The notes below the pieces were generated by a model. The model was not told the origin of the DNA, ran no database searches, and saw only the letters and a program-made list of their open reading frames with translations. A program made the position numbers and the translations under genes. Shown piece by piece: positions 4,078-21,678 of a stretch of 21,678 nucleotides of DNA. Numbering within the stretch: the stretch's first letter is position 1; the number at the start of each line of letters is the position of its first letter. Location of the stretch: UHGV virus genome UHGV-0168745; one strand, written 5' to 3'. The DNA is from a virus.

Positions 4078-4716
4078 ATGGCTGATACTATTGAACCTTC
4101 GTTGGTGAAGTGGTTAGAACAGCAACTACCACGCACCGCAAAGAAAGTTTCTTTGAAAAAGTTAGATAGTGCCCCGTTACATATCAGCGATCGAAAGATT
4201 CCGGTTTTCACACCTCGGATTCCTTATAGCGTTTACAGCGACGAAGACAAAACGGTACCCCGTATTTGTTGTTCTGTCGATTTAGAACGTTGCCTACGTG
4301 GTGTCCGTCGTTACTTTACGCCTGCGGAAACCGCGAATGTGGTGCCACGTTTTTATCTGTATGGGTTCGACGAACGTGATGTTGTGCAACCCTCGATAGA
4401 ACTGTCGGCTGAACCGTACCGCGCTAATGAAGTCTGGATTGTTCCTCACCGTTTATCGAACTGGGAAATTAAACCCAGTGTGGTTGGTGAATTGCGTTTA
4501 GTTCGCCTGGCAGATAACGGATATTCTCACACATTAGCAGTAGCGCTTAACCAAGACGTTCGTTTGAATGCTAACCAACTATTAAAAGGTGGTTCGTTCT
4601 ACGAGCTTACGGTAACGTGTAGTGAGCGGGAACCACAAATTACGATTTCTGATGCAAAAGAAATCTCTCGGGGTATTTTTGACGCTGCGTTAAACGAATA
4701 CACTGTAACTCCATAA
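4078..4716 (+). CDS. hypothetical protein, 212 aa
   Basis: ORF starting immediately after the upstream stop (TAAATG), suggesting coupled translation; no motif recognised. Confidence 0.6.
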   Translation: MADTIEPSLVKWLEQQLPRTAKKVSLKKLDSAPLHISDRKIPVFTPRIPYSVYSDEDKTVPRICCSVDLERCLRGVRRYFTPAETANVVPRFYLYGFDERDVVQPSIELSAEPYRANEVWIVPHRLSNWEIKPSVVGELRLVRLADNGYSHTLAVALNQDVRLNANQLLKGGSFYELTVTCSEREPQITISDAKEISRGIFDAALNEYTVTP

Positions 4717-4765
4717 TCGCCCAGTTCATGGTCTGCAACCCGAATTTGTCGATTGTGAGGGAAGC

Positions 4766-5065
4766 ATGAAAGTGGTTAACATTGCCATACCTCCGACTTT
4801 GCAAGCTTTAACGCCTGAGGAACTGAAAGCGCTAACCATCTACGCCGTTCAAGGACGTGCTGGAAAGGAAGTGCTTTCTTCGATACTCGCTGAACGTTTT
4901 GACACCAAACGTAAAGTCAACAACATTGTCGCAGGTATTTCACAACAAGATATCGCGAAATTTTATTGCGATGTGCGTCAAGCCGGTACCGAGATCGACT
5001 TTACACGTACGTACCTCTTGTTAACTGAACCGTATCGGTTCATTCTTTCTATTAAGCAGTCCTGA
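4766..5065 (+). CDS. hypothetical small protein, 99 aa
   Basis: ORF with GAGGGA 4-5 nt upstream of ATG; followed by an AT-rich intergenic region. Confidence 0.45.
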   Translation: MKVVNIAIPPTLQALTPEELKALTIYAVQGRAGKEVLSSILAERFDTKRKVNNIVAGISQQDIAKFYCDVRQAGTEIDFTRTYLLLTEPYRFILSIKQS

Positions 5066-5132
5066 TTTTATTATTTTTACGATTTCTACCGTTATTGTGT
5101 CGGAGGAACTTCTACAAAAAGGATAATCAAAA

Positions 5133-5684
5133 ATGTTCAATTTAGATAGTGACGGCGTATTCGCAAGTTGGCGCAAATACGTGCTGACACACCACTTTCA
5201 AGGAATGTCCATACAAGAATTTCATGGAATGCCGGAATTGCACCGCCGTGCACTGGTTCGGGAAATGTATTTAAAGGACCCGGATCTTTTTTATAAACTA
5301 GACCCTATACCCGAGGCAGCAAAAATCCTTGAAACGGTAGAAAGTCTGGGGGAATGCTGGGCGATATTAACGTCAGGTTCGGAAGATCATTTCGACCACG
5401 ACCGTGTTGTTGAGTGTAAAAAGTTATTCTTCGAGAAACACTTTGGTGTGCCTGGTCACAAAGTTATCGTGACTACAAACTCTGCGGAAAAAGCGACTTA
5501 CGCTGATAAGGGGAGATTGTTAGTGGATGACTATGGCCGGAATTGCCGTGAGTGGGTGTTAAAGAACGGGACCGCGATTTATACGCGAACGGATGAGCCT
5601 GACGTTGACGCAGTTTGTCGACAGCTCAGAACATTCGCAGAAAACCCCTTCGAATACTCAGGTCAGATTTTGTGCGTGCAGTAA
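5133..5684 (+). CDS. HAD-superfamily 5'(3')-deoxyribonucleotidase-like protein (NT5C family), 183 aa
   Basis: N-terminal LDSDGV fits the HAD motif I DxDx[TV]; from memory it parallels the human cytosolic/mitochondrial 5'(3')-deoxyribonucleotidase pattern (DMDGVLADF ... LEPIPGA ... LIDD) as DSDGVFASW ... LDPIPEA ... LVDD. AAGGA Shine-Dalgarno 9 nt upstream. Confidence 0.7.
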   Translation: MFNLDSDGVFASWRKYVLTHHFQGMSIQEFHGMPELHRRALVREMYLKDPDLFYKLDPIPEAAKILETVESLGECWAILTSGSEDHFDHDRVVECKKLFFEKHFGVPGHKVIVTTNSAEKATYADKGRLLVDDYGRNCREWVLKNGTAIYTRTDEPDVDAVCRQLRTFAENPFEYSGQILCVQ

Positions 5685-5692
5685 AACCTTTC

Positions 5693-5732
5693 GGGTAGTC
5701 TATTCGATGAATAGACTACCCTACCTTTATTT
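5693..5732 (+). terminator. putative intrinsic terminator (13-bp perfect stem GGGTAGTCTATTC / GAATAGACTACCC, 3-nt loop, then TTTATTTT)
   Basis: Perfect inverted repeat 5693-5705 / 5709-5721, immediately after stop at 5684; T-rich tract begins 5 nt after the stem. Confidence 0.45.
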
Positions 5733-5827
5733 TAACCCTATTGAAAAATATCTTGGATATATTTTACTTAGGTGAGCGTTGTAGAATTACACGCTATTCG
5801 ACTGTTTAACCTAAAGGAGAATTAAGC

Positions 5828-6253
5828 ATGAAAAGCGAATTATTTAAAGACCCGTTTGTTGCAATGATGGTTGCTGTCAGAGCAGCGGGAGACTCTAAGG
5901 ATTTAAAACGACTCCTCACCGATGAAGAATACTTACGCGAACAACGCACTGAGTATTTAGAAAAAGAAATCCAGGAATTTCCTGGCAATATGAAAGTGTT
6001 AATTGAAACGCTTAAAGAAGAGAAGTGGAGAAAAACACATCCGTTATCTGAGCACATTGATTTATCAATTGAAAAACTATTTCTGGAAGTGAAGGCGGAT
6101 AAAAAGCTTTGGGCTAAACTGGATGTGTCCGACCATGAGGTGTTAGTAATTGTTTTACGGGCAGCCATCCGCAACATCAAGTTGGTAGCAATTGAACTTG
6201 TAGGTAACACTCAAGGAGATGCAGCTCATGGTCTGGTCAGAACAATTCATTGA
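5828..6253 (+). CDS. hypothetical protein, 141 aa, K/E-rich (coiled-coil-like)
   Basis: ORF with extended Shine-Dalgarno ACCTAAAGGAG 8 nt upstream of ATG; overlaps the next ORF by about 26 nt. Confidence 0.5.
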   Translation: MKSELFKDPFVAMMVAVRAAGDSKDLKRLLTDEEYLREQRTEYLEKEIQEFPGNMKVLIETLKEEKWRKTHPLSEHIDLSIEKLFLEVKADKKLWAKLDVSDHEVLVIVLRAAIRNIKLVAIELVGNTQGDAAHGLVRTIH

Positions 6254-6617
6254 TATTTGTCGTGACCCCTTCACCTTATGGATACTGTGTAGCTTACGTC
6301 GTGATGACAGATTCTATACATTTGTTACAGACCCTCAAGCACTCGAGCTCCACGTAAAACGCGTTGAGGCGCATTTAGAGACGTTAAAAGGGGAAAGCAA
6401 TACCATTGAGCCTAAAGATGCATTTCTGTGCCGTATGGCGTCTCCTAAGTGGCGTGAAGCACATCGGTTAAAAGCACCTACACTCCCGGATATGGTACAG
6501 GAGCTTGCAAGGGCGGTAAGCGCTGACCATATCCTCTATCGAAACATTATCCAAGAACCTGACGATTGGAAAAACCATCGTATTTTGTTGGCACGTTGTC
6601 AGTTCACATTCTCTTAA
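6228..6617 (+). CDS. hypothetical protein, about 129 aa (start ATG 6228 preferred over 6219)
   Basis: AAGGAG at 6213-6218 abuts the ATG at 6219 (zero spacing) but is 9 nt from the ATG at 6228; the ORF runs to TAA at 6615-6617. Confidence 0.45.
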   Translation: MVWSEQFIDICRDPFTLWILCSLRRDDRFYTFVTDPQALELHVKRVEAHLETLKGESNTIEPKDAFLCRMASPKWREAHRLKAPTLPDMVQELARAVSADHILYRNIIQEPDDWKNHRILLARCQFTFS

Positions 6618-6638
6618 TCGACTTGTAAGGTATTATCA

Positions 6639-7310
6639 ATGGAAGCTACTGAAATTAATAAATTCTGGGAACGTGTACTTGGCCACTTCCGCGATTTCTA
6701 TCGCTATACCGATAGCGCGCATCGACTAGACCACATTCTTTCTGTGAAGTCGAATGCGATTCGTATCGCCTACCTGTTGAATGAAACTCAACACTTAAAG
6801 AACATTCTGGTTGCCGTGGCAGCGCACGATATTTTCTCCACACCTGCTGACCGTGCTTCTCACCACATCAAAGCATTCAACTACGTGCTTGATTCTGCAC
6901 CTATTCTCAAACGTCGCTTTAAGCTTAGTTGTGACGATGTAACCGAGGTAGCGTATGCGGTATTAGAACATCGGAGTTCCCACAAGGGTGGTTATAATTC
7001 CATTGTTTCTGAAATTGTCGCTGCTGCCGATCGTGGTATTCCCACCATCGAAGAAGTTAAAAATTACATGCACCGCTCTTACTTATACGCACGTGACCAT
7101 GGAAAATCCGTTACCGATTCAAAATTCCATGCCATCCGTCACGTACAAGATAAGTTCGGTCGTAATGGTAAATCCCGTGTTCCAGATTGGTATAACGCAT
7201 TGTTTGCGAAAGAAATCATGGAACGCCAAGAGTACGTTGAAATGCTCGACTTAGCGTATTTCACCGACGAAATCATCACTGGCTTAGAAAGCCGTCTTCA
7301 ACAACAGTAA
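6639..7310 (+). CDS. HD-domain metal-dependent phosphohydrolase (YfbR-like 5'-deoxynucleotidase-type), 223 aa
   Basis: Motif order SAHRLDH ... VAVAAHDI ... EHRSSH ... ADRG matches the H...HD...H...D pattern of the HD superfamily; TAAGG Shine-Dalgarno 8 nt upstream. Confidence 0.55.
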   Translation: MEATEINKFWERVLGHFRDFYRYTDSAHRLDHILSVKSNAIRIAYLLNETQHLKNILVAVAAHDIFSTPADRASHHIKAFNYVLDSAPILKRRFKLSCDDVTEVAYAVLEHRSSHKGGYNSIVSEIVAAADRGIPTIEEVKNYMHRSYLYARDHGKSVTDSKFHAIRHVQDKFGRNGKSRVPDWYNALFAKEIMERQEYVEMLDLAYFTDEIITGLESRLQQQ

Positions 7311-7329
7311 ACCTTAAGGAATAAATCAA

Positions 7330-7812
7330 ATGGCAAAAGTAATGTCTACTAAAGAACTGGCTGCAATGATCGACGCGCTGGAAACTCCGGCAATGACCCT
7401 GGGCGAAGATGCTGTACTTAACGCAGACCCGTTAATCAAAATCTACGAAGAATCGCTTCCGGTCATCAAAGTGAACGATACCGATTATCGACTGACGTTA
7501 CAGGATGCGGATGCAGTTCGTCAACATGATGCGAACTTCCTGGAAGTCTACGGTAAGGTTGCGTCAGAAGTTATCGTTGAGAAAGCAAAAGCAGACGATG
7601 AACTGGTCGCGCTGGACCTTACCACGAATATTGGTAACGCGTCGTTCTCTACGGTGTTCTCACGTCCAACTGGGGAAACAGTAGGGGCGTCTGAATGGGC
7701 AGCTTCTATCGGCTTTGGTTACGGTGTACCTAAGTCAAAAGAGCTGGAAGGGAAAATGCGCAAAGTGTTTGCCGATGCGATGATGGCGGTCGATGACGAA
7801 GACGACGAATAA
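7330..7812 (+). CDS. hypothetical acidic protein, 160 aa, C-terminal DDEDDE tail
   Basis: ORF with TAAGGA 9 nt upstream; about 19% D+E by manual count and an acidic C-terminus; followed by an intrinsic terminator. Confidence 0.5.
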   Translation: MAKVMSTKELAAMIDALETPAMTLGEDAVLNADPLIKIYEESLPVIKVNDTDYRLTLQDADAVRQHDANFLEVYGKVASEVIVEKAKADDELVALDLTTNIGNASFSTVFSRPTGETVGASEWAASIGFGYGVPKSKELEGKMRKVFADAMMAVDDEDDE

Positions 7813-7830
7813 GATCGCCATTATTTCAGG

Positions 7831-7856
7831 AGCCCGACTACATCGGGCTTTTGTTC
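7831..7856 (+). terminator. intrinsic terminator (AGCCCG-actacat-CGGGCT + TTTTGTT)
   Basis: 6-bp GC stem, 7-nt loop, U-tract immediately after, 19 nt beyond stop codon at 7812. Confidence 0.55.
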
Positions 7857-7973
7857 CTGAAGAAAAAATCAATCCTACAAAATGGCAACAACCTCTTTCT
7901 CGGAAGCCAGGGCCACCCAGACCAATTGATGGTCTGGTTTACCTGAGTCACCGACGGAGAAAATAAAATCTAG

Positions 7974-8004
7974 GGCGGTCTTATGACCGCCTTATTTTTT
8001 TTTT
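7974..8004 (+). terminator. strong intrinsic terminator (GGCGGTC-ttat-GACCGCC followed by a 13-nt T-rich run)
   Basis: Perfect 7-bp GC stem, 4-nt loop, then TTATTTTTTTTTT at 7992-8004; second terminator in tandem, about 120 nt after the first. Confidence 0.65.
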
Positions 8005-8023
8005 GATTTCAGGAGATAAAACA

Positions 8024-8581
8024 ATGCAAAACTTATTCGACGGGTATCCCATGGCCAATGAAAAGCCGAATACAGAACGGGCTGTCCCGCTTCCTAACGT
8101 CATGAATCGTACAGAAGTCATTAACCGCCTTAACCAGATCGGTGAAATCTTTACGTTGTCTATGGAAGCCACTTTAGATGATGCGTTTCCACACATCGCA
8201 GGTTGGCCTGCTGAAACGATCCCACACACCATCAACGGCTACCAGCGTTTCTTAACCGAAATACGTAGCAGTTCCGTCGGCAATATCATCGCCGGTTACA
8301 TTATCCGTTTCAAACAACTTCTACTGATTGAATTCGGTGAAGGTGTGTTGGAAGCATTGGAATCTGAACTGATTACTTTACACAACAACGAAATTATACG
8401 CAACGAAAAAGGAAACGGTGACGCAGAACCAACCCTGTGGCGTGTTGCTTATCCAGACGATACCACCAACACACCGCCTACCACGTTCGATTTACTCTCT
8501 ACGTTCCTGCTGTTAATGCAGATGAAAAACTTAATTATTCGTTCTTCCGCTCGTAAACATCTGGCGCAAGAAGAAAAATAA
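8024..8581 (+). CDS. hypothetical protein, 185 aa (start ATG 8024 preferred over TTG 8003)
   Basis: AGGAG at 8011-8015 lies 8 nt before ATG 8024; the ORF-track start at 8003 is a TTG inside the terminator T-run. Stop TAA 8579-8581. Confidence 0.55.
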   Translation: MQNLFDGYPMANEKPNTERAVPLPNVMNRTEVINRLNQIGEIFTLSMEATLDDAFPHIAGWPAETIPHTINGYQRFLTEIRSSSVGNIIAGYIIRFKQLLLIEFGEGVLEALESELITLHNNEIIRNEKGNGDAEPTLWRVAYPDDTTNTPPTTFDLLSTFLLLMQMKNLIIRSSARKHLAQEEK

Positions 8582-8585
8582 AAGC

Positions 8586-8626
8586 TACCTACCTCCTTGA
8601 CGGAGGTAGGTAAACTTATTTTTTTT
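8586..8626. terminator. bidirectional intrinsic terminator between convergent genes (TACCTACCTCC-ttgac-GGAGGTAGGTA, T-run on + strand, GCTTTTATTTTT on - strand)
   Basis: Perfect 11-bp inverted repeat 8586-8596 / 8602-8612, flanked by T-rich tracts on both strands; sits between the + gene ending at 8581 and the - gene ending at 8629. Confidence 0.6.
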
Positions 8627-8628
8627 GC

Positions 8629-9504
8629 TTAACGAAGCTGATTTGCCATCTGCTCGTCGGACACAGAACGATAACCGCCAGCCGTAGCATCGACGTCTGG
8701 GTTGATACCGTTGGTCTGCTGAGACGGAGTAAGCCACAGTTTGCGCTCGTAAGGACGCAGACCGTAAAGCTTCATGCGCTCCAGTTCTTTCTGAGCTGCC
8801 TGCATCGGACCCCAACCTGTCCATTGCTGGGAGGTGAAGGTGATAGACAGTTCGTTGGTCTGAGGACCGGTGTTCGGATCGCGTTCACCGATATCCTGAC
8901 CGTTAGACTCAGGAGCCATGTTCGTCAGCCACCACGCGTTCTGCGGTTTACGCTGATACGCATCCGGTTCGAAATACAGCACGGTCATGCTGTACATATC
9001 CGGCAGGTGATCCGGCACGTTCGGGTTGATTGCCGCCAGACCAGGGTGGCCAGTGTGCGGGTCACAAACACCGTAAACCAGCCACGCCCACAGCATGTTC
9101 TGATACACTTTACCCAGTTTATCCGGGGTCGTGTGTGTAACGGAAGACAGTGCTTCCGTTACCAGACCAGCTTCGTACTGAACGCGGTTGTTACGTCCCT
9201 GCTGAGTCTGTACGTACTCAGCACTCAGGGATTTGTCCAGACCGGTAATCGTGGTGTGAACTTCGATGAATGATTTGATTGCCTGACGCCACAGTTGTGG
9301 GTTCGGCATGTAATCAACCCAACGAGGGAATTCCATCACACGAGCGATTACGTTACGGCGCAGACGGTGGGCGTTGGTAACGAACTTACCAACCTGACCG
9401 ACCGGACCGTTTTGACCAGACGAGAAGGGGTTAACCATATCGTACTGGCCGCCATCGACATGGAGGCCCTGGTCAGGTAAAATCATGCGTTCTTTAATAG
9501 ACAT
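8629..9504 (-). CDS. virion structural protein, 291 aa; tentatively tail tube (position-based)
   Basis: ORF starts 3 nt after the stop of the upstream 685-aa gene on the same strand, with GGAGAG inside that gene's 3' end as Shine-Dalgarno. A large protein followed by a tightly coupled protein of about 290 aa recalls the sheath/tube arrangement of phiKZ-like myoviruses (recalled from memory). No sequence motif confirms it. Confidence 0.4.
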   Translation of the reverse strand: MSIKERMILPDQGLHVDGGQYDMVNPFSSGQNGPVGQVGKFVTNAHRLRRNVIARVMEFPRWVDYMPNPQLWRQAIKSFIEVHTTITGLDKSLSAEYVQTQQGRNNRVQYEAGLVTEALSSVTHTTPDKLGKVYQNMLWAWLVYGVCDPHTGHPGLAAINPNVPDHLPDMYSMTVLYFEPDAYQRKPQNAWWLTNMAPESNGQDIGERDPNTGPQTNELSITFTSQQWTGWGPMQAAQKELERMKLYGLRPYERKLWLTPSQQTNGINPDVDATAGGYRSVSDEQMANQLR

Positions 9505-16706: not shown

Positions 16707-16715
16707 ACATAACAA

Positions 16716-16741
16716 GCCTCCTACCCGAAAGGGTAGGAGGC
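16716..16741 (+). other. perfect 11-bp hairpin with GNRA (GAAA) tetraloop upstream of the terminase start
   Basis: GCCTCCTACCC-gaaa-GGGTAGGAGGC read directly; no U-tract; the terminase Shine-Dalgarno GAGGAG (16742-16747) starts right after the 3' arm. Confidence 0.45.
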
Positions 16742-16752
16742 GAGGAGTCTGT

Positions 16753-19097: not shown

Positions 19098-19114
19098 AAT
19101 CTGTTAAACTAAAC

Positions 19115-19157
19115 TAGCCAGTAACCCGTTCGGGTTACTGGCTAACTCTTATTTTTT
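19115..19157. terminator. intrinsic terminator between convergent genes (13-bp stem TAGCCAGTAACCC / GGGTTACTGGCTA, loop gttc, then CTTATTTTTTATTT)
   Basis: Perfect inverted repeat 19115-19127 / 19132-19144; T-rich tract on + strand overlaps the stop codon of the - strand gene. Confidence 0.55.
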
Positions 19158-20532: not shown

Positions 20533-20605
20533 TAGTGAACCTCGAAATAATTACGGATAGATATTATCCTAGTGAGAGTCTTATTCTACCTAAAGGAGTT
20601 TTAAA
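20533..20605. promoter_or_regulatory. 73-bp divergent intergenic region (putative divergent promoters/operator)
   Basis: Between divergent starts 20532 (-) and 20606 (+); contains inverted repeat GGATA-gatat-TATCC (20553-20567), direct repeat TAGTGA x2 (20533-20538, 20568-20573) and extended Shine-Dalgarno ACCTAAAGGAG (20588-20598). Confidence 0.3.
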
Positions 20606-21629
20606 ATGAGAAATTACTTACGTAAACCCGCTTGGCACAGAATGCTGCGTGAGGGCACCATCGACCGCAATCAAAACGTCAAGATGTGGGTACTCCCACA
20701 TGGCGTGATTTGCGATTTAGTTCGCGTCGGTGGTATGGACATCCTGCGTAACGGAACTTACGATGCTGTCAACTCGTTTCTTGCTCGAGAGCTGGCAGAA
20801 GCCGGGTTACACGGAGAGATTCTGTTTTACACTACCCGTGTGATTCCACAAACCCTGTCGAAATGGTTAACATACTGGTTATCCAGTGACCCCGACGCGT
20901 CAGACCCCGAACTGAGTTCGGTGACGATTACGACACTGGGGCAATACCCCACTAAACCGTTACCGTTCCAGGTCAACGTGGTAGAACCGTTAATCGTGAG
21001 AGCTGGGGATGTGTTTGACATGATCAAAGTCAAATCCAGAAACCAAGCGGTGTCGCAATTCCTCATCGAAACGGAAAACGACGTGTTTCGATTGGAGCCG
21101 GTACGCAAGACAGACGCCACGCTACTGGCGGTTACCGATTACGGGATTGTCTGTCGTTCCGCAGAAGGTCACACGTTCCTGTGCACGATTTTGTCACGAC
21201 GTATCCAAGCTCAGTTAGCGCATTACAAACTGAGCTTAGAAGACATCATCGGCACCACGTTACGTATCGAATACACGATGTACACCGAAGGGAATCGACT
21301 GTGTAATTACAAGTCGCCTATCGCTTATCGCGCACTGGCGTTAGACAACCTCGGTGATTGGGTTTCAACGACATACGATGGGCCTTCGCCGTTTAAAACG
21401 ATACCGACACAACGGCCTGCATTGCTAACGGTAACGCGCTGCAACCGGGCGGAAATCTACGAAGAAAACGGGGTGATTTACGGCCTGGAACGGGAGACGG
21501 GTTTAACACTGTTTCGTTTCCGTCGTGGCCCGGAATACGGGCGTTACGCTGCTGTTTTCGAACGGGAAGGGGAACAAGAAACCTGGCTATTCGATTCGGA
21601 TTTCTCGGTTGACGTTATTGACCCTGAGG
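20606..21629 (+). CDS. hypothetical protein, 3'-partial (at least 341 aa); not in the supplied ORF track because no stop occurs before the window ends
   Basis: ATG 20606 with AAGGAG 7 nt upstream; frame translated by hand stays open to the window end and runs into adapter sequence from 21630. Confidence 0.55.
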
Positions 21630-21678
21630 CTGTCTCTTATACACATCTCCGAGCCCACGAGACCCTAAGACATCTCGT
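21630..21678 (+). other. Illumina Nextera library adapter (Tn5 mosaic end + read-2 adapter + 8-nt index + start of P7), not biological sequence
   Basis: CTGTCTCTTATACACATCT (reverse complement of the Tn5 mosaic end) followed by CCGAGCCCACGAGAC, then CCTAAGAC (index-length octamer), then ATCTCGT (start of P7 ATCTCGTATGCC...). Confidence 0.9.

Follow-up and report, generated by a model that had tools for sequence, protein, structure and literature searches.

A conserved cassette of non-structural genes with two predicted nucleotide hydrolases in a jumbo phage of the SPN3US group

The virus genome UHGV-0168745 was analysed as a stretch of 21,678 nucleotides, here called the window, whose source is a phiKZ-related jumbo phage of the SPN3US group. 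A first reading of the letters alone (the original prediction) had singled out positions 5066-8023 as an AT-richer accessory island with two nucleotidases and small genes, and as a candidate for an undescribed functional system. Judged by gene order and composition in relatives, the region is an old, lineage-conserved block of non-structural genes, flanked by the late operon of the prohead protease and the convergent operon of tail tube and sheath. The following genes and signals lie at its centre (ORF, open reading frame; dN/dS, ratio of nonsynonymous to synonymous substitution rates):

5133-5684, + strand: predicted NT5C-family HAD 5'(3')-deoxyribonucleotidase-like enzyme, 183 aa (phrog_2643, HAD motifs, dN/dS 0.06)
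5693-5721, + strand: intrinsic terminator hairpin with T-run (-20.6 kcal/mol, z -7.4), ending the unit of the NT5C-like gene
5755-5776, + strand: motif resembling early promoters of the virion RNA polymerase, GGATATATTTTACTTAGGTGAG, its orthologous site conserved in ten phages
5828-6253, + strand: ORF A, 141 aa (phrog_27024), fast-evolving, first gene of the putative early unit (dN/dS 0.34)
6228-6617, + strand: ORF B, 129 aa (phrog_23206), tandem paralog of ORF A (dN/dS 0.15)
6639-7310, + strand: predicted stand-alone HD-domain phosphohydrolase of the YpgQ/YedJ/2pq7 type, 223 aa (profile, AlphaFold 2 model, Foldseek, Pfam HD)
7330-7812, + strand: acidic 160-aa orphan protein (phrog_7952), always directly 3' of the HD gene
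7793-7966, + strand: basic 57-aa protein, isoelectric point (pI) 11.7, diverged homologue of SPN3US ACQ60_gp013 and Asesino gp274; its gene contains the hairpin 7830-7849
7971-7994, + strand: strong intrinsic terminator with a 10-T tail (-18.7 kcal/mol)

Two predicted nucleotide hydrolases

The original prediction had recognised the product of 5133-5684 as a HAD-type 5'(3')-deoxyribonucleotidase by its DSDGV motif, and the comparison with 11 orthologues bore the motif out. Motif I reads D5-S-D7-G-V9, with D5, D7 and G8 invariant, and T80, K120, D132 and D133 of motifs II-IV were likewise invariant in all 11, so that all four HAD motifs are preserved. The protein matched phrog_2643, annotated as "5'-3' deoxyribonucleotidase", at 1.7e-17; its best match was the unannotated phrog_420 (1.1e-29). 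The DxDxV nucleophile, the Thr, Lys and DD motifs and a similar length liken it to the NT5C family (PF06941, PHROG 2643), and the dN/dS of 0.06 was obtained against a sister lineage. Together, these features point to an NT5C-family HAD 5'(3')-deoxyribonucleotidase with intact catalytic motifs.

The pattern H...HD...H...D described earlier for the product of 6639-7310 was recovered in an alignment of 27 homologues, in which H28, H63, D64, H111, D131 and R146 were invariant; 13 of the 27 matched Pfam HD. Profile searches against the PDB returned 2pq7, a "predicted HD superfamily hydrolase" (9e-8), E. coli YedJ (7e-3) and SE1688 (0.2), and the alignments with these matches covered all four metal-motif segments. 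The AlphaFold 2 model of the protein reached a predicted local distance difference test (pLDDT) score of 93.2. Its best Foldseek matches included 3djb besides 2pq7, 2pjq, 2qgs and B. subtilis YpgQ (5dqw), the latter four with probability 1.00 and template modelling (TM) scores of 0.46-0.63. The homologue family comprised 63 clusters, exclusively on jumbo-phage-sized contigs.

Among the characterised relatives, mononucleotides are the substrates. YpgQ is a Mn-dependent (d)NTP pyrophosphohydrolase with the ligands H29, H58, D59 and D124 (PMC8177086), and PenF, which belongs to the same group, is a nucleoside 5'-monophosphatase (PMC11592144). YpgQ (5DQV/5DQW), YedJ (3GW7), 2PQ7, 2QGS and PenF share with the window protein the all-helical HD fold, the H...HD...D ligands and a length of about 200-240 aa, whereas the identity between the YpgQ/YedJ group and the window protein is just 15-21%. 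R146 and Y150, which follow the last Asp, resemble the substrate residues R136 and F140 of YpgQ (PMC8177086), a correspondence deduced from their spacing. Profile and model thus favour a stand-alone HD hydrolase of the YpgQ/YedJ/2pq7 type over an HD-GYP or RelA/SpoT-like enzyme, which would place the "putative HD domain protein" of deposited genomes in the YpgQ/YedJ subfamily of mononucleotide hydrolases.

The same searches bear on the proposed role of the module in breaking down cyclic (oligo)nucleotide messengers or alarmones, such as (p)ppGpp or the signals of CBASS, Thoeris and Pycsar. Some HD branches, namely HD-GYP proteins and RelA/SpoT hydrolases, do act on such molecules. HD-GYP structures did occur in the list of fold matches, at rank 20 or below and with TM scores of about 0.36, and a SpoT/Mesh1-type fold was absent from the top 50 fold matches of the HD model. 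At the sequence level only the generic HD family of Pfam was matched among the 27 homologues; none matched the HD-GYP (HD_5) or RelA/SpoT (HD_4) families, and no GYP motif was visible in the HD protein itself. Its nearest relatives, by sequence as well as by fold, were the mononucleotide hydrolases YpgQ, YedJ and 2pq7, and a PADLOC search gave zero matches. Phage enzymes that degrade messengers use other folds, Acb1 being a 2H phosphoesterase and Apyc1 a metallo-β-lactamase (MBL) protein, and neither a 2H nor an MBL fold was encountered. The searches produced no positive evidence for the degradation of cyclic nucleotides or alarmones, which we consider a very improbable function of this module.

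Gene order and base composition

A megablast search with positions 4700-8700 against 50,697 phage records returned a single match of 94 bases and none that was close. With blastn, the same stretch aligned at about 68% identity over about 60% of its length with 47 Salmonella, Escherichia, Erwinia and Proteus jumbo phages. By these nucleotide comparisons the window phage is a distinct lineage, with about 68% identity in this region to the nearest deposited phage. Metagenomes and assemblies of Salmonella and Shigella contain contigs of about 221-226 kb that encode proteins with 95-100% identity to the HD protein, and relatives of the genes neighbouring the HD gene were found on contigs of about 223-226 kb in E. 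coli and Shigella assemblies.

The genes flanking the cassette encode a virion RNA polymerase beta subunit, the prohead protease (Peptidase_S80), the tail tube (Phage_TTP_14), the tail sheath (phiKZ_gp29PR) and further virion proteins. Between them, the cassette has the order prohead protease, a protein of about 210 aa, one of about 99 aa, the NT5C-like enzyme, zero to two small ORFs, the HD enzyme, the acidic protein, one to three small genes and the convergent tube and sheath genes. This order was kept in nine relatives (SPN3US, Asesino, phiEaH2, SPAsTU, Huxley, ChrisDB, Wellington, CR5 and Phobos), whose annotated loci cover five genera. In SPN3US (ACQ60_gp019 to gp012) and Asesino (gp269-gp275) the order and the flanking protease and tail-sheath operons are as in the window, and a terminator and a promoter motif likewise stand between the NT5C-like and HD genes. 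Amino-acid identities between these two cassettes and that of the window were 43-72%; ORF A and the 57-aa gene have strongly diverged, and Asesino has a single small ORF instead of the two in the window. Vibrio phage pVa-21 has the NT5C-like gene at the same locus and lacks the HD gene. The core cassette genes were present in 47-61 phage records, the acidic protein in 61 and the NT5C-like protein in 116.

The original prediction was correct in describing an AT-richer stretch, since the GC content of 5066-8023 is 43.9% compared with 48.5% in the remaining window and falls in the lowest 5% of equal-length windows. The dip is modest, however, and extends from about 4078 to about 8600, with the minimum window beginning at 4401. 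The GC content at third codon positions (GC3) of the cassette genes was 0.36-0.48, against 0.51-0.59 for neighbouring structural genes; in the 212-aa gene at 4078-4716 it already amounted to 0.385.

A GC content below that of the flanks, and short genes of mostly unassigned function, are features that a recently acquired, horizontally transferred accessory island would also have. Yet gene content, gene order and locus are shared by relatives from five genera, and the orthologous cassette lies 2.9-4.9 GC points under its flanks in all ten relatives checked, that is, the nine full-cassette phages and pVa-21. The cassette was thus present in every relative examined, each with the same dip. Mobility genes, tRNA genes and flanking repeats were absent, and variation was confined to the slot of ORF A and ORF B, which holds zero to two genes. 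A recent acquisition is therefore hardly credible, and the claim of an accessory island was abandoned. Because the dip recurs in ten of ten relatives, the composition appears to be an old property of the gene block and not the trace of a recent transfer; the lower GC content probably reflects the composition of non-structural genes together with AT-rich regulatory spacers. The dN/dS values across all cassette genes ranged from 0.05 to 0.34, and the genes are under purifying selection.

The stretch under study is a new lineage's copy of a cassette that already exists in dozens of deposited jumbo-phage genomes, where it is partly annotated as "putative HD domain protein" and "NT5C". The original prediction had itself named a conserved gene order and membership of ordinary nucleotidase families as part of the outcome that would speak against an undescribed functional system; both were found computationally, and with enzymes of known families in a widely conserved order we no longer regard the region as such a system. 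In SPN3US-like jumbo phages, the GC dip between the late operons is better read as the mark of a conserved non-structural cassette than of a mobile island.

Transcription units and small genes

An internal hairpin terminator, placed earlier at 5693-5732, was located at 5693-5721. Its position is conserved in ten phages, each of which has its own GC-rich hairpin and T-run 3' of the NT5C-like gene, with differing sequences. Beyond this terminator, a motif with the consensus AGATATATWTTACYTAGGTGAG in the ten phages lies about 50-70 nt 5' of the next gene, and a pattern scan detected it at the orthologous site in every locus. In the SPN3US genome (232 kb examined), TATATTACYTAGGTG occurred in six exact copies and one near copy, each on the + strand and at a distance of 65-90 nt from the gene downstream; Markov-shuffled genomes contained just 0-2 matches, even when two mismatches were allowed.

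Comparable motifs have been published as early-promoter consensus sequences, TATATTAC for phiKZ and ...BTATATTACDWHDGTG for 201phi2-1 (PMC7058600 Table 2), and phiKZ-like early motifs of this kind serve as recognition sites of the virion RNA polymerase (PMC7598289). The SPN3US site TATATTACTTAGGTG fits the 201phi2-1 consensus exactly and is AT-rich, intergenic and co-oriented with the downstream genes. The copy in the window, TATTTTAC, differs from the core by a single change. Being AT-rich, intergenic, co-oriented and repeated genome-wide, the motif at 5755-5776 has the sequence properties of a phiKZ-like early promoter, and its promoter role is predicted from these. The comparison also provides a usable early-promoter consensus for SPN3US-like phages. 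The literature offered nothing usable on the cassette genes in the form of gene-specific or transcriptome data for SPN3US, and no transcriptome for the SPN3US-like lineage.

Because the conserved terminator and the promoter motif stand between their genes, the NT5C-like and HD enzymes appear to belong to separate units and not to one operon. The early-type signal is found on the HD unit only, for which an early timing would follow.

Two further occurrences of the motif were observed. Within the window, a second copy, GGATAGATATTATCCTAGTGAG, lies at 20555-20576, 30 nt 5' of a + strand ORF starting at 20606 whose ribosome-binding site, CCTAAAGGAG, is identical to that of ORF A; the position of this copy suggests that it marks another early unit. 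In CR5 (L003 4943-4957) and Phobos (L006 4947-4961), an extra copy is found directly 5' of the acidic-protein gene, and in the genus of these phages the acidic protein may therefore be transcribed independently of the HD gene.

At the other end of the cassette, two tandem terminators had been proposed. The second, at 7971-7994, stands (-18.7 kcal/mol), whereas the first hairpin, 7830-7849, sits inside the 57-aa gene. Each of the four hairpins (5693-5721, 7830-7849, 7971-7994 and 8586-8612) is far more stable than shuffled sequence; the terminator scan reported the first and the last two and missed 7830-7849. The latter folds at -16.9 kcal/mol and is weakened by one substitution in the relative L012. 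The 57-aa gene is intact in diverged relatives, including the sister-lineage contig L019, its dN/dS is 0.15, and four of the five substitutions relative to L012 are synonymous, so that the hairpin most likely lies inside a real gene. A C-terminal motif is common to the 57-aa protein, SPN3US gp013 and Asesino gp274.

The two overlapping small ORFs noted at first do exist; what changed is their relation and the start of the second. ORF B is open from 6219, but the ATG at 6228 is favoured by Shine-Dalgarno spacing and by an independent gene call and is probably the start. While BLASTP found no similarity between ORF A and ORF B, a profile-profile comparison with hhalign aligned them at 98.8% probability (E = 7e-17), with DPF and KWR motifs common to both, and both touch phrog_27024. 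By this profile evidence they are tandem paralogs. Their family was limited to Seoulvirus- and Erskinevirus-like phages and comprised 87 clusters, all labelled "hypothetical". The slot holds one copy in Asesino and phiEaH2, none in CR5, Phobos, Wellington and ChrisDB, and an unrelated 63-aa ORF in Huxley. ORF A was 36-51% identical to its counterparts on L019 and L021, two contigs of the sister lineage, while the flanking genes were 84-99% identical; no other gene of the block reached its dN/dS of 0.34, the neighbours having 0.05-0.15. ORF A therefore looks like a local hot-spot of divergence, a pattern typical of host-interaction genes, and ORF A/B can be flagged as a fast-evolving slot.

The 160-aa protein is acidic as stated before (pI 4.3, net charge -16). 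Its model (pLDDT 86.6) had no significant match among solved structures in the fold search that the original prediction had called for. In BFVD it matched uncharacterised proteins of the phiKZ-like phages KTN4 (TM 0.60/0.70), Phabio, PhiEaH1, Eowyn, D6 and RSF1. An exhaustive search with a hidden Markov model (HMM) yielded 28 clusters only, all of short proteins, with acidic C-termini in most of those inspected; remote family members map to uncultured phages only. An HMM of the 28 members found no phiKZ counterpart in the first 50 kb of the phiKZ genome, to which this search was confined. The protein can be flagged as an orphan that is possibly common to phiKZ-like phages. One 415-aa protein carrying the acidic domain, P0080, was examined as a fusion with an HD enzyme and rejected, since its N-terminus is HNH-type homing-endonuclease-like and provides no Rosetta-stone link. 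In this SPN3US-like relative, about 250 aa of such sequence are fused in frame upstream of the acidic-protein gene, which suggests insertion of a homing endonuclease between the HD and acidic genes.

The cassette extends on both sides of the stretch first proposed and, downstream, continues past 8023 through the 185-aa gene to the terminator 8586-8612. The outer features are:

4078-4716, + strand: 212-aa protein, function unassigned (phrog_5043), directly 3' of the prohead protease; the low GC content begins here, and orthologues are present in all relatives
4766-5065, + strand: 99-aa protein, function unassigned (phrog_8261), conserved upstream neighbour of the NT5C-like gene (dN/dS 0.08)
5092-5107, + strand: conserved locus-specific element, TTCATGTGTTGGGGA, upstream of the NT5C-like gene
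8024-8581, + strand: 185-aa protein, function unassigned (phrog_8407), last + strand gene before the convergent tail genes
8586-8612, not strand-specific: bidirectional terminator between the cassette and the convergent tail-tube/sheath operon (terminator scan, folding)

The element at 5092-5107 is identical in SPN3US, Asesino, SPAsTU and phiEaH2. It was considered as a repeated promoter and rejected, as it occurs only once in the SPN3US genome and differs from the early-promoter motif; it could serve in regulation or as a promoter other than an early one. A hairpin at 5026-5042, flagged by the terminator scan, was also rejected because it lies inside coding sequence and is not palindromic in relatives. 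A search of 4700-8700 against Rfam gave no family at threshold, and NCBIfam gave no meaningful match.

Possible roles of the cassette

The reading we favour, with moderate confidence, is a conserved cassette whose two enzymes remodel the deoxynucleotide pool, partly early in infection. At least two transcription units are predicted. The first would consist of the NT5C-family HAD 5'(3')-deoxyribonucleotidase, ended by the conserved terminator. Its product is predicted to convert deoxynucleoside monophosphates (dNMPs) to deoxynucleosides via a phospho-enzyme intermediate at Asp5. The second unit would run from the early-promoter-like motif through ORF A, ORF B and the HD, acidic and 57-aa genes to the strong terminator, followed by the 185-aa gene, and would act early in infection. 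Its HD enzyme is expected to use H28, H63, D64 and D131 as a mononuclear metal site for the hydrolysis of (deoxy)nucleoside tri- or monophosphates. Jointly, the two hydrolases could reshape or sanitise the deoxynucleotide pool of the infected cell, the function of each being deduced from its family.

This role in remodelling or sanitation appears to be the most economical one, because mononucleotides are the substrates of those relatives of both enzymes that have been characterised, and because SPN3US carries nucleotide-pool genes. SPN3US also encodes thymidylate synthase, thymidylate kinase, dihydrofolate reductase (DHFR) and MazG, and such enzymes seem therefore to be a normal part of its lineage. 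Routine remodelling of the dNMP pool had been offered in the original prediction beside an anti-defence role. It is the better supported of the two, through ordinary enzyme families and conserved gene order. If it is correct, the value of the present analysis lies mainly in annotation.

Several points weigh against this interpretation. The window copy of the NT5C-like protein scored 22.7 bits on Pfam NT5C (PF06941), under the cutoff of 24.8, which was exceeded by the orthologues of SPN3US (34.1), CR5 (25.0), pVa-21 (26.3) and Wellington (38.0 bits). No solved structure matched this protein by sequence, single-sequence and profile searches returning only noise. For the HD model, the Foldseek E-values were weak, 2e-3 at best, at a probability of 1.00. 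The NT5C-like gene has no early motif, and a coordinated action with the HD enzyme is unsupported; substrates, timing and the cooperation of the two enzymes are all deductions. A replicating phage would seem to work against itself by breaking down dNTPs and dNMPs, unless its enzymes discriminate between substrates. Finally, no function could be deduced for five of the nine cassette proteins.

A more specific proposal is that the HD enzyme and the MazG of the lineage remove non-canonical triphosphates (dUTP, dITP, 8-oxo-dGTP) and the NT5C-like enzyme disposes of the monophosphates, a house-cleaning that would guard the 225-kb genome against misincorporation. The human enzymes of the NT5C family act preferentially on dUMP and dTMP, and the SPN3US annotation contains MazG and no dUTPase, both of which agree with such a task. 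YpgQ, the sole biochemically characterised member of the family, hydrolyses NTPs as well as dNTPs (PMC8177086). As a variant of pool remodelling, the proposal is indistinguishable from it by sequence, and in this narrower form we rate it as rather unlikely.

The two enzymes might instead serve anti-defence by erasing mononucleotide danger signals and so blunt systems such as Kongming or PUA-Cal-HAD. The targets would then be dAMP, m6-dAMP or dIMP for the NT5C-like enzyme and dITP or a different triphosphate messenger for the HD enzyme, and the fast-evolving small proteins would contribute additional counter-defence. Phage T5 Dmp, an early-made deoxynucleoside-5'-monophosphatase, is a proven anti-Kongming factor that acts by depletion of dAMP (bioRxiv 10.1101/2024.12.20.629578; PMC12967843) and a functional analogue of the predicted NT5C-like dNMP phosphatase, and PUA-Cal-HAD is triggered by m6-dAMP (PMC12871103). 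The early-promoter-like motif on the HD unit and the arms-race-like divergence of ORF A would also suit such a role. The analogy to T5 Dmp does not extend to sequence, in which no relation was detectable; homology was rejected at a BLASTP E-value of 38, T5 Dmp has no NT5C Pfam match or any Pfam family in common with the window protein, and the window gene has no early-promoter motif. Moreover, Dmps reportedly occur mainly in phages that bear dNMP kinases (bioRxiv 10.1101/2024.12.20.629578), whereas SPN3US is annotated only with thymidylate kinase, and the enzymes are as strongly conserved as housekeeping proteins (dN/dS about 0.06). On balance the anti-defence role is unlikely. It is kept at a low probability because molecules derived from dNMPs are immune triggers or messengers and a phage dNMPase is able to disarm Kongming.

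In its fullest form, an early counter-defence cassette, both enzymes would jointly destroy dAMP, m6-dAMP, dIMP and dITP, with ORF A, ORF B and the acidic protein as host-interaction factors, all before the phage nucleus is built. We give this scheme little chance as well. Such a counter-defence would be non-homologous to and independent of T5 Dmp and, if true, would represent a second, independent origin of Dmp-type counter-defence and the first example in phiKZ-like (nucleus-forming) phages.

Some minor observations concern the remainder of the window. The tail-tube protein is 96% identical to its counterpart in Asesino, despite the nucleotide identity of about 68% in the cassette. The final 49 bases (21630-21678) are Illumina Nextera adapter read-through (CTGTCTCTTATACACATCT and CCGAGCCCACGAGAC, followed by an index and ATCTCGT); the contig therefore ends in an assembly artefact, and the ORF leaving the window closes with codons that do not come from the phage. 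GC-rich hairpins occur in intergenic spacers of the late genes at 698-744, 16707-16752 and 19098-19155, for example GGGGGTGGGTCGCTCCCACCC 3' of the RNA polymerase subunit gene, and are probably terminators or RNA-processing sites.

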